This document shows, in pieces, positions 49,383 to 63,345 of a DNA stretch of 64,000 nt (its first letter is position 1; every line of letters begins with the position of its first letter). Origin of the DNA: Patescibacteria group bacterium. GTDB lineage: Bacteria > Patescibacteriota > Kazan-3B-28. The notes beneath the pieces were generated by a model that ran no database searches, was not told where the DNA came from, and was given only the letters and a program-made list of their open reading frames with translations. Where the stretch lies: NCBI GenBank assembly GCA_041649135.1, contig JBAZNQ010000001.1:291037-355036 (forward strand), written 5' to 3'. The translations under genes were made by a program, and so were the position numbers.

Positions 49383-49850
49383 TTACTTATTGGTCGCTTT
49401 GCGACCAATAAGTTTCTGTATTTCCTTTTCAAAAGTCTCCAAATCAGTAAATTTTCGATATACTGCCGCAAACCGAATATATGCCACACTATCTACCTGT
49501 TCCAATTTACTGATTACGATTTCGCCGATCTCCGCCGAATTAACTTCTTCACGATTCAATTCGTAAACTGCTCGTTCAATATCATCAATTACTTTTTCAA
49601 TATCCGCCGCCGACAAAGGCCGTTTGTAAAACGCTTTATAAATTCCGGCTGACAATTTGTCTCTCTCGAACAACTCTCGCGAACTATCTTTTTTTATTAC
49701 CATCAATCTCGGCTGTTCTGCCCGCTCATAAGTCGTGAATCTAAAATTACACTTCACGCATTCCCGTCGCCGCCGAACACTTGCATGATCCTCCGCAATT
49801 CGAGAATCAATTACCGCGCTTTCTAATTCACCACATTGTGGACAACGCAT
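49383..49850 (-). CDS. nrdR: transcriptional repressor NrdR
   Basis: MRCPQCG...CVKCNFRFTTYE zinc ribbon plus an ATP-cone. Confidence 0.85.
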   Translation of the reverse strand: MRCPQCGELESAVIDSRIAEDHASVRRRRECVKCNFRFTTYERAEQPRLMVIKKDSSRELFERDKLSAGIYKAFYKRPLSAADIEKVIDDIERAVYELNREEVNSAEIGEIVISKLEQVDSVAYIRFAAVYRKFTDLETFEKEIQKLIGRKATNK

Positions 49851-50278
49851 CGGACTAGTTAAAAGTTAAAAGTTATAAGTGATAAGTTATGGTGGTTCTG
49901 CTTTTGCAGCAGAACTATGATCATTGCTAATTATTAATTTGACCTTCCTTCACTTATCACCTGTCACCTATCACTTGTCACTCCCCACCGTATCTTGTAT
50001 TCGCAAGACTAATCGTACCCCTATATCTAGTATTCCCCGAAACCCGCTCTGCCACGTGGATACCCTTGCTTTTATCCCCACCCCTAAACAAAATCTCACC
50101 AATTTATCCAATCTTCACCAATCTCACCAATTTAACCTAGTCATTCTGGCAAGCGAAGCGCGACCAGAATCTTATGTCATTGCGAGGAGTCCCGAGATAC
50201 CGAGGGATGACGAAGCAATCTCCCCTCCCAAAATCTCTGCTATACTAAACCCAGCAAAACTTGTACCCGAGGTGTCAG

Positions 50279-50458
50279 ATGGCAACAAACGGTCGCCCCA
50301 ATGAGGAGGAGATCACATCGGCCCAACGCGAAGAAATCGTGCGACTGTTGGAAAAATACACGGGCAGAGGGCTTCTGCACCCCCAAGAACTAGATGGGGT
50401 TGGAAAAGACTGCGCCGAGAGAATGCTCAAACACCTTCGAATGATTGACGCATTGTAA
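50279..50458 (+). CDS. small hypothetical protein (59 aa) in a GC-rich cassette array
   Basis: ATG at 50279 after a tatact box, followed by a hairpin and T-run. Confidence 0.35.
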   Translation: MATNGRPNEEEITSAQREEIVRLLEKYTGRGLLHPQELDGVGKDCAERMLKHLRMIDAL

Positions 50459-50588
50459 GCCACAGCCACCGCCACTCCATCATCCGCCCGTGCGTTCTTA
50501 TCCGCTCGGGCTTTTTCTTGTCCAGATTGACTTTTTCTCTGCCTAGCCTAGAATGCCAATGAATAAACTTGTACCAAGGAGTCTCGTT

Positions 50589-50873
50589 ATGGCAATAGTC
50601 GACATATCCAACCCAGACGGGGATCCGATGATAGCTCTGCAAATCCTGTTCCAACACACCATTGCGGACACAATTACTCATCCGGGGTTTAGCTGGGAAA
50701 AGCAACTCGGCCTTGTGATAGAGCACTTCCGCAAGCAGTCGGAAACAATAACCCAGCTCACCACACAAATCCAAGAGCTCCGACGCGATCTCGGTGCGAT
50801 GGGTCAGCACTGCCAAAACCATAAACCTGAAGTTTATGGTCCGCTATCCCCCCTCGATGACAGCGGCATCTAG
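50589..50873 (+). CDS. small hypothetical protein (94 aa) in a GC-rich cassette array
   Basis: aggag RBS 7 nt upstream; own TTGACT-N16-TAGAAT promoter and terminator. Confidence 0.35.
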   Translation: MAIVDISNPDGDPMIALQILFQHTIADTITHPGFSWEKQLGLVIEHFRKQSETITQLTTQIQELRRDLGAMGQHCQNHKPEVYGPLSPLDDSGI

Positions 50874-50972
50874 CCACCAACAAGAGCACCTCATGCCCGC
50901 GCGCTCCATCCGCCCGGGCTTTTTCTTTGATGCTACAATAGAGCCATCAATCTTGTACCCAATGGAGCATAC

Positions 50973-51233
50973 ATGGGAGACGCCAACACTCCACCTCGTC
51001 TCACGAAGAAGGAAAAACAAGCCAGATATCTGGCTTGGCTCAATCGGTCTGCGGAAGCCAAAGAGCTAAGACGCAGACTGCGCAAAACGGTTGCGTCATG
51101 GCTAGCCGAATTGCCTTCGGATGAGCAACGCAAAGAAGCTGCCGTTCTCATTCAAGCAAGGTACAACTTCGACGAGCTTCCGGAGTCCCACCTTTACCCA
51201 TTAGCCGATCTCGAGCACAGCCTCTCGGCGTAG
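50973..51233 (+). CDS. small hypothetical basic protein (86 aa) in a GC-rich cassette array
   Basis: ggag RBS, preceded and followed by the conserved hairpin-T-run module. Confidence 0.35.
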   Translation: MGDANTPPRLTKKEKQARYLAWLNRSAEAKELRRRLRKTVASWLAELPSDEQRKEAAVLIQARYNFDELPESHLYPLADLEHSLSA

Positions 51234-51360
51234 AGAAGGGATACATCATCGCACAAGCCCGCGCGCTTCCCGCTCGGGCTTTTTCTTTTCCAGATTGACT
51301 TTCTCTCTGCCCCATCCTACATTACCAGTAAGTAGAAAATCGTACCCAGAGGAAAACCTA

Positions 51361-51477
51361 TGAACAAATGCTTTGCTGATTGGCTGTTGTTGGCGGGAGG
51401 CATTGCGTTAGTAATAGTCATGCTCCTCGCCGACACCTCACAATGGCCATCATGGGGGCTGACACCACCCATGTAGA
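51361..51477 (+). CDS. putative 38-aa membrane peptide
   Basis: MNKCFADWLLLAGGIALVIVMLLADTSQWPSWGLTPPM, own promoter-like box and terminator module. Confidence 0.2.
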
Positions 51478-51530
51478 ACAGTCACCCAGTTGGTCACCCA
51501 TCCCGCCCGACTCTCGTCGGGCTTTTTCTT

Positions 51531-51720
51531 GTCCCCATTCCCCCTCCGCCATTGGAGCTTGAGCGTCCTGAATCAGTAAAATCCCTCCAATCAGCGTGCC
51601 CATGTTTGAGGAGCTTTAGCTCCGAGTTTGGCGATAAGCAGATGGGGAGGATTTTACTAGATTCAGAGTCGAAAGCGACTGGCGGGAACTTTTGCGTTAC
51701 TTTTCTAGAAAAGTAACCGC
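51531..51720. ncRNA. conserved ~185-nt structured element, copy 1 (candidate ncRNA or mobile-element end)
   Basis: More than 90% identical to 58441-58625 and 63166-63345. Long-range helix cctgaatcagtaaaatccctcc / ggaggattttactagattcag and a perfect local hairpin gttacttttctagaaaagtaac. Confidence 0.4.
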
Positions 51721-51966: not shown

Positions 51967-53076
51967 TTATTTCATTTTTTTCCGTATAAACGCCGGCACA
52001 TCCAATTCATCTTTTTCATCTTCTCGGCTGTCTTGCCGTGTTGTTGTTGCCGCTGGTTTCTCTGCCATCTTCCGACGCTGAATGTAGGATTCATCAAATC
52101 CGGTAGCAATTACCGTAATTTTAATTTCACCCTGCATCGCCTCATCCACTACCGCACCAAAGATGATGTTAGAATCCGGATCAGATGCTTCGGTAATTAC
52201 CCGAGCCGCTTCGTCAATTTCATACATCGACATATCCGGTCCACCAGTAATGTTAAACAGAATTCCTTTGGCTCCGTCAATTGACAGCTCCAATAGCGGT
52301 GAATCGATTGCCATCTTCGCCGCTTCCAGCGCCCGATTATCACCCGTACCGCGTCCAATTCCCATCAAAGCGCTTCCGGCATTCTGCATGATCGTTTTAA
52401 CGTCAGCAAAGTCGACGTTAATCATTCCATGCATGGTGATCAAATCGGAGATACCCTGCACACCTTGGCGCAGAATATCATCAACTACCGAGAAAGCATC
52501 ATAGAGTGATGTTTTCTTATCGATTACTTGAAGTAAACGGTCATTAGGAATTGTGATTAAGGTATCCACTCTGCTCTGTAACTCCGAGATACCTTCTTCA
52601 CCGACCTTTTTGCGCCGCATACCCTCGAACGAGAACGGTTTCGTCACTACCGCGACTGTTAACGCGCCTAACTCTCTGGCAATTTCTGCCACAATTGGTG
52701 CCGCACCAGTTCCGGTGCCACCACCCATGCCGCAGGTAACAAATACCATGTCGGCATCTTTCAGCGCTGTATAAATCGCTTCCTTATCTTCCTCCGCTGA
52801 TTTCCGCCCCAGCTCAGGGTCCGAGCCGGCGCCAAGGCCACGTGTTGTGGTCTGGCCAATCTGAACCCTAACAGGCGCATCATTGTGATGCAAATCCTGC
52901 GCGTCTGTGTTGATCGCGACGAACTCCACCCCTTTGATCCTAGATTGGATCATTCGGTTCACCGCGTGGCAGCCGGAGCCGCCCACACCGACAACCTTAA
53001 TGCGCGCAAACACATCCTCCTCGTCAAACGAGTCGGAAGTAAGTCCTGCGCTCATGGTTCTTTTTTTGGTTGCCAT
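51967..53076 (-). CDS. ftsZ: cell division GTPase FtsZ
   Basis: GVGGGGCNA-like GGGTGTG tubulin signature ([12 protein letters not shown]). Confidence 0.9.
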
Positions 53077-56243: not shown

Positions 56244-56535
56244 AAATAAATACCTGCCTTCCCTTGTCTCGTCATTCTGGGGAGTTCTGCTGGACAGCAG
56301 AATGACTCCAGAATCTTTCTCCTTTGTCATTGCGAGGAACTTGTGACGAAGCAATCTCCTATGCTAGCCCCTAAATGCTAGACGCTAAAATGTTACCTGC
56401 TTTTATCAGATTAGGCAAGAGCGTTAAAAACTATGAGGGAAGACCGGAGTGTGTTCTCCCCTCATCGAACCGTCGGCAAAAGCCGACCCATAAAGGGCTA
56501 GCGGTTCTGCTCCCCTCTCCACTTTTTAGACAGGA

Positions 56536-58440: not shown

Positions 58441-58625
58441 CCGCCATTGGAGCTTGAGCGTCCTGAATCAGTAAAATCCCTCCAATCAGCGTGCCCATGT
58501 TTGAGGAGCGTAGCGACGAGTTTGGTGATAAGCAGATGGGGAGGATTTTACTAGATTCAGAGTCGAAAGCGACTGGCGGAAACTTTTGTGTTACTTTTCT
58601 AGAAAAGTAACCATCGATGAAGCGG
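58441..58625. ncRNA. conserved ~185-nt structured element, copy 2
   Basis: Nucleotide-level conservation with the copies at 51531 and 63166. No conserved reading frame. A partial tandem duplicate of its 5' 30 nt lies immediately upstream (58405-58440). Confidence 0.4.
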
Positions 58626-62834: not shown

Positions 62835-63118
62835 CGTATCGCTATTGTACTCTATTGACCCACCCGACCCATCTTGCTAGGATAATCTCGCTGGCGTGCA
62901 TTGGCAAATAGCTGAATATCGTAGACTTGGCCCAAAGCGACACTGGCGCTATTCGCCAGTACACGCCAGCGACCAACTCTGGATTAACCGCACCCGACAG
63001 GTGGGATGCGAGCCTTCTTCTCACGCATGCCGAGAAAGGGCTCGCATCCCTTCACTCCTTCTTGTACCTTCGGGGACACCATCAAGTATTACTCTTGATA
63101 ACCATCATCCCCCTTATG

Positions 63119-63156
63119 CCCCCGCATACTCATCTGTGCGGGGGTTTCTTTTTGTA
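63119..63156 (+). terminator. canonical intrinsic terminator on the plus strand (no annotated plus-strand gene upstream)
   Basis: cccccgcatactcatctgtgcggggg followed by tttctttttg. Confidence 0.5.
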
Positions 63157-63165
63157 TTCCCATCC

Positions 63166-63345
63166 GCCATTGGAGCTTGAGCGTCCTGAATCAATAAAAT
63201 CCCTCCAATCAGCGTGCCCGCTGTTTGACGACCGTAGGGAGGAGTTCGGTGATAAGCAGATGGAGAGGATTTTGTTAGATTCAGAGCGAAAGCGACTGGC
63301 GGAAACTTTTGTGTTACTTTTCTAGAAAAGTAACCGCCACCTTCA
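63166..63345. ncRNA. conserved ~185-nt structured element, copy 3
   Basis: Relative to copy 1 it carries a compensatory pair change in the long helix (cagtaaaat/attttactag becomes caataaaat/attttgttag). Confidence 0.4.

Follow-up and report, generated by a model that had tools for sequence, protein, structure and literature searches.

Four small orphan reading frames with a shared promoter-terminator module in the ftsZ-nrdR spacer of a Kazan-clade bacterium: a possible strain-specific accessory islet

A 64,000-nucleotide (nt) stretch of the chromosome of a Patescibacteria group bacterium (GenBank assembly GCA_041649135.1, contig JBAZNQ010000001.1, positions 291,037 to 355,036; hereafter the window) carries, between ftsZ and nrdR, an array of four small plus-strand open reading frames (ORFs). 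The array occupies positions 50230-51535 and its ORFs, of 59, 94, 86 and 38 amino acids (aa), span 50279-51476; each lies between its own promoter-like sequence and its own hairpin terminator. On balance we lean towards reading the array as a strain-specific accessory islet, made of four autonomous small-gene units set in a hot spot between ftsZ and nrdR of the Kazan clade, with the repeated regulatory module as the recombination substrate. The four ORFs had been described by a first-pass annotation made from the sequence alone, and all of them are called as genes in public annotations of the same DNA. They are indeed mutually unrelated, as was claimed (z <= 1.5 for all window pairs in Smith-Waterman comparisons against shuffles). 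The locus is real, since all the other assemblies recovered carry it with 100% nucleotide identity (L001-L004 and L095; six other assemblies when the proteins of an NCBI metagenome-assembled genome (MAG) are included). These proteins are annotated at NCBI as those of a Patescibacteria-group MAG, and, among named genomes, those closest to it by FtsZ belong to candidate division Kazan.

Every ORF of the array ends 21-28 nt upstream of the stem of a GC-rich hairpin followed by a U-run, with folding free energies of -14 to -19 kcal/mol over the four sites. The exact 13-mer CGGGCTTTTTCTT closes all four hairpins, once per ORF, and has no other copy within the 64 kb; the expected number is about 0.21, and none of 100 shuffles reached four. 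A hairpin with a T-run at each junction, as first proposed, is thus confirmed. The second terminator looks mosaic, combining a 5' arm like that of the third with a stretch, CATCCGCCCG, like that of the first (repeat families D7 and D8). The last copy, which had been taken for a full module, is a terminator only.

The promoters are less uniform than had been claimed. Near-identical TTGACT promoters precede two of the four units, those of ORF2 and ORF4, and there the junctions 1/2 and 3/4 are 95% identical over 42 nt comprising the terminator tail and the TTGACT -35 box (family D3). ORF1 and ORF3 are preceded by extended -10 promoters instead, and two relatives, L007 and L013, have slot units whose -10 lines up with the first of these. 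A second shared element had been overlooked: the leader motif (C/T)T(T/C)GTACC(C/A) stands 2-4 nt upstream of the Shine-Dalgarno sequence of all four ORFs (Table 1). When both strands of 1.16 Mb of window and related loci (2.3 Mb of strand) were scanned, the composite of leader, Shine-Dalgarno sequence and ATG was confined to the four units and the unit of L007, apart from two sites that look like chance. Such a shared leader may reflect common post-initiation or regulator-dependent control, and its TTGTACC element may bind a common regulator. Within the module only certain pieces are conserved, namely the 3' arm and tail of the terminator, the -35, the -10, TTGTACC and the Shine-Dalgarno sequence, while the spacers have diverged. 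This was interpreted as meaning that the pieces have been retained by function, and not by very recent copying.

Table 1. Elements of the array and of the left border of its slot (window positions)
Element	Position	Strand	Description
Slot left border	50066-50084	.	conserved cTTGCTTTTATCCCCACCCC: DnaA-box-like TTATCCCCA (50072-50080) and -35-like TTGCTT of the ancestral slot promoter
Promoter P1	50238-50246	+	extended -10 TGcTATACT, read from sequence
Leader motif, unit 1	50260-50268	+	CTTGTACCC
ORF1	50279-50458	+	59 aa, Shine-Dalgarno GAGG, predicted soluble, orphan
Terminator T1	50486-50519	+	hairpin and T-run of CGGGCTTTTTCTT, -15.2 kcal/mol
Promoter P2	50527-50554	+	TTGACT-16-TAGAAT, 10/12 matches (consensus scan)
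Leader motif, unit 2	50568-50576	+	CTTGTACCA
ORF2	50589-50873	+	94 aa, Shine-Dalgarno AAGGAG, two predicted helices (one long), orphan
Terminator T2	50895-50927	+	-14.2 kcal/mol, carries CGGGCTTTTTCTT
Promoter P3	50931-50939	+	extended -10 TGcTACAAT; TTGACT -35 segment absent; read from sequence
Leader motif, unit 3	50952-50960	+	CTTGTACCC
ORF3	50973-51233	+	86 aa, Shine-Dalgarno GGAG, four predicted helices, orphan
Terminator T3	51255-51289	+	-16 to -19 kcal/mol, carries CGGGCTTTTTCTT
Promoter P4	51295-51323	+	TTGACT-17-TACATT (consensus scan)
Leader motif, unit 4	51340-51347	+	TCGTACCC
ORF4	51360-51476	+	38 aa, one hydrophobic helix WLLLAGGIALVIVMLLA, singleton cluster
Terminator T4	51505-51530	+	array end; 7-bp GC stem and T-run; no promoter after

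The order ftsA-ftsZ-nrdR-ribonucleotide reductase is kept in the ten closest genomes found, and the spacer between ftsZ and nrdR is variable. It measures 2116 bp in the window, with its four small ORFs, and about 175 bp, with no ORF, in L005 and L006, whose FtsZ is 94-95% identical. L007 (93%) has a spacer of 768 bp with one 65-aa membrane ORF. The spacers of L009, L010 and L011 (84-85%; 295-600 bp) hold repeat elements only, their ORFs being implausible (on the minus strand, or running through the conserved nrdR control block). In L012 (84%; 622 bp) the other strand has an ORF for a basic product of at least 74 aa. L013 (82%; 1326 bp) has a pair of ORFs, of 124 and 59 aa, and L014 (81%; 419 bp) a single one of 66 aa; L008 (93%) is uninformative, its contig stopping about 150 bp past ftsZ. 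The slot ORFs of the window and its relatives are all different: among 36 comparisons only the pair formed by ORF-A of L013 and the L014 ORF beats 200 shuffles, with a borderline z of 4.5. An exact look-up located three of the slot ORFs, all of them singleton clusters. On the left the slot is bounded by a stretch kept in every relative, made of the NrdR-box-like repeats upstream of nrdR and of CTTGCTTTTATCCCCACCCC with a DnaA-box-like 9-mer; on the right it is bounded by the ftsZ terminator. The block at the left border is conserved in all Kazan relatives and directly precedes the slot contents; in L007 and L013 it stands 17 nt upstream of a TACACT -10 before the first small ORF.

The module is judged to be older than the array, and it recurs in L013 with other cargo. 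The junction between the two L013 ORFs reads CCCGCCCGACGCCACCGTCGGGTTTTTTCTTCTCCCAGATTGACTTTTTT, then TATACT, ATGCACCC, GGAGG and ATG. This junction matches T4 at 83% in its terminator and the P2/P4 module at 91% in its promoter half, while the adjacent nrdR control block is only 74% identical between L013 and the window. The ORFs of L013 have no convincing similarity to those of the window (best pair ORF-A/ORF3, z = 2.5, equalled by 5 of 200 shuffles). The first-pass annotation had offered phage morons, anti-defence or toxin-antitoxin cargo, and an array of cassettes assembled through recombination at the module they share; the last of the three fits best, the module being kept in L013 (83-91%) beside unrelated ORFs, the slot being empty or differently filled in other relatives and the terminators being mosaic. 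It had also made its idea depend on the module recurring elsewhere and on conservation of the ORFs at the amino-acid level: the module does recur in a relative, and the ORFs have no homologues.

The composition of the array was used to ask where it came from. Its GC content is 52.1%, as had been estimated, against a window background of 45.7% rather than the 42% first given; this is about 2 standard deviations (SD) above the mean, a value reached by 4.3% of windows of the same size. The slot of L013 has a GC content of 51.6%, close to the 52.0% of its own genome, while the window slot lies 6 points above its host. The islet therefore probably entered the window lineage from a Kazan relative of higher GC content, to judge from composition, most likely through homologous recombination in the core genes on either side, which are highly conserved. 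A different history would have the array grow in place, from a single unit like that of L007 duplicated in tandem, with the coding parts diverging or arising de novo and the regulatory parts kept by selection or gene conversion. Such a history would account for the first slot unit of L007 and L013, in which the -10, TTG(T/C)ACC, GGAG and the start codon are arranged as in the internal units of the array, and for the patchiness of the module, as in old copies under functional constraint; orphan status also suits young genes. We nevertheless judge it unlikely, because the ORFs differ in length and retain no residual similarity, because de novo ORFs derived from the local spacer should resemble the host in GC content and not lie 6 points above it, and because the slot is empty in the closest relatives and the module is shared with the distant L013.

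For an accessory islet of this kind we infer the following mode of action. Each unit would comprise a promoter of the sigma-70 type, a leader, about 25-35 nt long, with TTGTACC and a Shine-Dalgarno sequence, a small ORF and an intrinsic terminator. The module would insulate the units from one another, so that each is probably transcribed alone, as a monocistronic message, and translated; the earlier description of separately transcribed small genes with copied regulatory modules agrees with this prediction. All four units face the 3' end of the convergent ftsZ, with nrdR behind them, and the terminators would stop read-through into ftsZ, shielding it from antisense transcription. The repeated module offers 40-130 nt of homology per junction and would most likely serve as a substrate for homologous recombination. 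Recombination between modules, within one genome or with incoming DNA of a relative, could then add, delete or swap units.

Several features of the ORFs argue for translation. From each promoter to its terminator, the interval is taken up by an ORF that starts with ATG just after a Shine-Dalgarno sequence. When the intervals were shuffled with dinucleotide composition preserved, the probabilities of ORFs of such length were 0.05, 0.002, 0.009 and 0.10 for ORF1 to ORF4; ORF2 beats 1996 and ORF3 1982 of 2000 shuffles, and Fisher's combination of the four values gives about 1e-4. ORF1, ORF2 and ORF3 show a periodicity in which GC content at the first codon position exceeds that at the third, and the third that at the second (0.63/0.37/0.55 at positions 1/2/3 of ORF1; 0.61/0.36/0.59 in ORF2). 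Under four codon models the frame proposed for ORF1, and likewise that for ORF3, outscores the five others, and at 38 aa the coding statistics of ORF4 are indecisive. Transcripts of ORF1 and ORF2 have no more structure than shuffled sequences (z = +0.3 and -1.0), that of ORF3 having a moderate excess (z = -2.7), and no credible Rfam match was found for the array. Judged on these sequence features, ORF1 and ORF3 are likely to be coding, ORF2 is probably so and ORF4 plausibly.

A number of observations weigh against the islet reading, some concerning translation and others recombination. Searches of 5.8 billion proteins with ORF1, ORF2 and ORF3 gave self matches only, which makes them strict orphans, and ORF4 forms a singleton cluster; with neither a homologue nor a polymorphism, purifying selection has no sequence variation on which it could be measured. 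The codon log-odds of the ORFs are near zero, compared with 0.39 +/- 0.15 for host genes, and lie 2-4 SD below those genes under the host model; the same low values, together with the GC content, can also be counted as a sign of foreign composition. For ORF2 and ORF4 the proposed frame does not come first among the six, and the antisense frame of ORF2 scores equally well and is called in one Joint Genome Institute (JGI) annotation. The case for coding draws on sequence features. Taken together, these points would suit a locus in which the regulatory repeats are real and the ORFs untranslated, the transcripts being non-coding or antisense small RNAs, or spurious products of duplicated debris in a junk-rich spacer that also collects repeats resembling miniature inverted-repeat transposable elements (MITEs). 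The crowding of the spacer with dispersed repeats, and a structured RNA candidate elsewhere in the window (62853-63152) that shares the motif CTTGTACC, are consistent with this too. It is, in our estimate, an unlikely explanation: four of four intervals hold an ATG ORF behind GGAG or GAGG with the low combined shuffle probability given above, GC1 clearly exceeds GC2 in ORF1 to ORF3, the ORF1 and ORF2 transcripts lack excess structure, Rfam gives no match, and the stop codons fall 21-28 nt before the terminator stems. As for the antisense ORF, it is 131 aa long (50427-50822 on the minus strand; 17-412 in L095) and lies over ORF2 and the P2/T1 module. It is probably spurious, since it is rich in Trp, Cys, His and Arg and crosses the promoter and the terminator of the module.

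On the side of recombination, the evidence comes from a single other species, L013, and from sequences of 32-36 nt. Neither a recombinant junction nor a deletion variant nor a circular form was seen among the recovered copies of the array, which share sequence and unit order. Outside the window, the search for the module that the first-pass annotation had called for succeeded in L013 and failed in the large collections: with exact patterns (the scan of this organism's own genome covering the 64-kb window), a strict 24-nt form had no match in viral contigs or in GTDB representative genomes, and a looser form gave five matches in JGI contigs and one viral match, all by chance or convergence. The metagenome collection is incomplete in this respect, in that L002 (JGI sample 3300037067), which bears the pattern, was not returned. 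Among the looser matches, that in L085 was rejected as lying inside a 459-aa ORF, and those in L087-L090 were taken as chance, having no terminator hairpin or promoter context. The match in L086 (2990-3012) covers 23 nt of the module (TTTTTCTTTTCCAGATTGACTTT) in a housekeeping terminator-promoter junction upstream of secE-nusG-rplK. From its gene content this contig looks like an unrelated organism of the Candidate Phyla Radiation (CPR), and the joining of a T-run to a -35 box is there either a chance or a convergent event.

The profile searches and structure predictions that had been proposed for identifying the peptides led to no significant family and no known fold. Pfam, PHROGs, PADLOC and NCBIfam gave nothing above threshold for the array ORFs, the best sub-threshold match being a weak DUF1707/SHOCT-like one for ORF1 (E = 0.037). 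Single-sequence AlphaFold2 models of ORF2 and ORF3 are helical and of middling confidence (predicted local distance difference test scores of 70.8 and 67.4); Foldseek found no usable PDB match for them, and phmmer none among PDB sequences. When ORF2 was compared exhaustively, by phmmer, with 1.84 billion representatives, five matches other than itself came up and were rejected as repeat-protein artefacts: all were matched in 4-9 stretches, and the two inspected are internally repetitive (for example a HEAT-repeat protein, with nine stretches). ORF4 has a single 17-residue hydrophobic stretch, read from its translation, and is a probable membrane peptide. The predicted products are thus small, soluble, helical proteins from three of the ORFs and, from ORF4, a peptide that crosses the membrane once; we would guess them to be dispensable and niche- or strain-specific.

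The array could also be the remnant or cargo of a mobile element, in the form of phage morons, anti-defence genes, or a type I toxin-antitoxin system with ORF4 as the toxin. This would agree with the autonomous promoter-gene-terminator layout and the atypical composition of the units, with their absence from the closest relatives and with the small repeats and palindromes flanking the array. The size and hydrophobicity of the ORF4 peptide, which recall type I toxins, are the sole feature favouring the toxin reading. We regard the whole proposal, which takes up a reading of the first-pass annotation, as quite improbable. The flanks are core genes in conserved synteny, without phage, integrase or plasmid genes, and the slot is fixed between them in several species. 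The whole array has no match in phage or plasmid DNA, ORF2 and ORF3 have no relatives in viral contigs, and PHROGs and PADLOC, as said, gave nothing significant. ORF4 in particular shows no homology to a known toxin family, having no Pfam, PADLOC or NCBIfam match and a non-significant one in PHROGs, and a crude consensus scan of the strand opposite to it revealed no minus-strand promoter-like site from which an antisense RNA could be made.

Among known systems, the closest counterpart is found in phages. The promoter-early stem-loop (PeSL) cassettes of T4-type phages join a sigma-70 promoter and a stem-loop in one composite motif; they precede orphan genes in hyperplastic regions, where they mediate indels, replacements and mini-circle formation (PMC2839356; PMC4122927). 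Membership was judged by the definition of Arbiol et al. 2010 (PMC2839356), with Comeau et al. 2014 (PMC4122927) as a second source. Like PeSLs, the array repeats a motif that pairs a sigma-70-like promoter with a stable stem-loop terminator; the motif stands directly before orphan genes, where close relatives differ by insertions, deletions and replacements. PeSLs and array alike keep the motif beside genes that bear no relation to one another, and it makes an insulated transcription unit of each gene. Unlike PeSLs, which occur in about 50 copies in T4-type phage genomes with early phage promoters, the array is chromosomal, lies between core genes and has four units. In addition, its stem-loop is a classical upstream intrinsic terminator and its module includes the TTGTACC leader. 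Recombination and mini-circles are known for PeSLs, while the array offers the different cargo of L013 and mosaic terminators, with no variant arrangement in the recovered copies.

Phage morons are autonomous promoter-gene-terminator units located between genes of lambdoid prophages. The array resembles them in the predicted promoter, ORF and terminator of each unit, in its absence from the same place in close relatives and in its atypical composition. It differs from them in that morons sit between phage or prophage genes, while the array is without phage homologues, and in that several tandem units share homologous regulatory DNA. The array thus falls outside both PeSLs and morons because of its chromosomal location; by analogy, the best description for it is that of a PeSL-like or moron-like variant residing in a chromosome. 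It also fits the concept of flexible genomic islets, known from population genomics to occupy hot spots between conserved core genes: the site between ftsZ and nrdR is fixed, its content differs between relatives and its cargo is of unknown function. Compared with a typical islet it is very small (1.3 kb), is made of orphan mini-genes only and has an internally repeated module.

The array shares with integron arrays the tandem arrangement of small, often orphan ORFs separated by hairpin-forming repeats. Site-specific cassettes of this type could be imagined with CTTGTACC on the 5' side and CTTGTCC, in the terminator tail, on the 3' side as core sites, and similar 7-8-mers of these two kinds do bracket each ORF when the sequence is read, with a hairpin at every junction and orphan cargo. 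Integrons, however, are built from IntI, attI and Pc, none of which is present among the genes within 6 kb on either side of the array, and from promoterless cassettes with attC, whereas the units have their own promoters and U-run terminators (no formal attC model was applied). The absence of an integrase gene nearby, the separate promoters and the ordinary terminator character of the hairpins effectively refute the integron-like reading, and a similarity of 7-8 nt is within chance; we consider it most improbable.

Genomes of CPR bacteria, or Patescibacteria, are tiny and rich in proteins of unknown function, and little is known of how they gain genes. If the islet reading is true, a reduced genome keeps a compact plug-in slot, in which modules ready for expression and insulation would allow unrelated small ORFs to come in and be swapped without disturbing the essential ftsZ and nrdR. 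PeSL-type modular shuffling is described so far only in T4-type phages. That it also operates in an ultra-small CPR chromosome, the slot beside the nrdR region with its DnaA and NrdR boxes exchanging orphan mini-proteins between Kazan lineages, is a tentative and rather doubtful extension by analogy; were it true, a phage mechanism would be extended to cellular chromosomes. In practical terms the locus supplies, for experiments, a leader motif that is conserved and four candidate small proteins with clear limits, and, if the ORFs are not expressed, it is an intergenic curiosity only.

The array lies among core genes. On its left are nrdR (49383-49850) and the gene for a class II ribonucleotide reductase, and on its right ftsZ (51967-53076) and ftsA, all on the minus strand; within 6 kb on either side are found the genes for the reductase, nrdR, ftsZ, ftsA, ybeY, yqeY and S21. 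The control block upstream of nrdR (49988-50084) contains two NrdR-box-like repeats (ATCTTGTAT..., CTATATCTAGT) and the DnaA-box-like TTATCCCCA, which is a perfect TTATCCACA in L012 and TTGTCCACA in L014. Since this DnaA-box-like sequence falls inside the spacer of the first slot promoter of L007 and L013, the ancestral slot unit (TTGCTT-17-TACACT) may have been DnaA-responsive. In the window the ancestral promoter is split by short CACCAAT-type repeats (50092-50137) and by palindromes at 50140-50172 and 50176-50220 (of the GTCATTGCGAGG...GACGAAGCAATC type), which have kin at 26546-27116 and 56326-56356 in the window and also in L009 and L011. One may speculate that about 140 bp of these repeats and palindromes were inserted into the ancestral promoter, leaving P1 to rely on its extended -10. 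The idea that the spacer is a replication origin, suggested by its DnaA-like box and repeats, was rejected: the GC skew has no switch, and gene orientation is constant across the window.

The spacer holds other dispersed elements that recur elsewhere in the window, so that it looks like a general landing zone. An element about 150 nt long, whose arms CCGCCATTGGAGCTTGAGCGTCCTGAATCAGTAAAATCCCTCC ... GGAGGATTTTACTAGATTCAGAG... form inverted repeats, has three copies, at 51546-51700, 58441-58600 and 63164-63330, and its 18-mer CCGCCATTGGAGCTTGAG is also present 3' of the L013 array. It is probably the element that the first-pass annotation had called conserved, and could be a MITE or a structured RNA. 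A 126-nt element (49857-49982) separates the NrdR boxes from the nrdR start codon and has inverted arms made of heptamers (AAGTTAA AAGTTAA AAGTTAT AAGTGAT ... CACTTAT CACCTGT CACCTAT CACTTGT). At the same position L007 has another element of heptamer repeats (AGAGATT AGAGAAC ...), and L005 and L006 have none.

Some minor observations concern single sequences. Within ORF3, at 51018-51037, there is a perfect 8-bp palindrome, CAAGCCAGATATCTGGCTTG, which continues on the minus strand with TTTTTCC and scores as terminator-like; it could be an antisense terminator or a chance occurrence. The first slot ORF of L013 (2322-2696, minus strand in the locus; 124 aa, GTG start) is without Pfam match and begins with MPVINIFG, a start that resembles the N-terminal proline of tautomerase-superfamily proteins. 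Finally, the structured RNA candidate at 62853-63152 (plus strand) begins with a sigma-70-like promoter, TTGACC-17-TAGGAT, followed by about 265 highly structured nucleotides ending in a hairpin and a T-run (minimum free energy -110.9 kcal/mol, z = -7.7, reached by 0 of 200 shuffles). It contains no ATG ORF, belongs to no Rfam family, includes CTTGTACCT as in the leaders of the array, and is a candidate for a novel small RNA.

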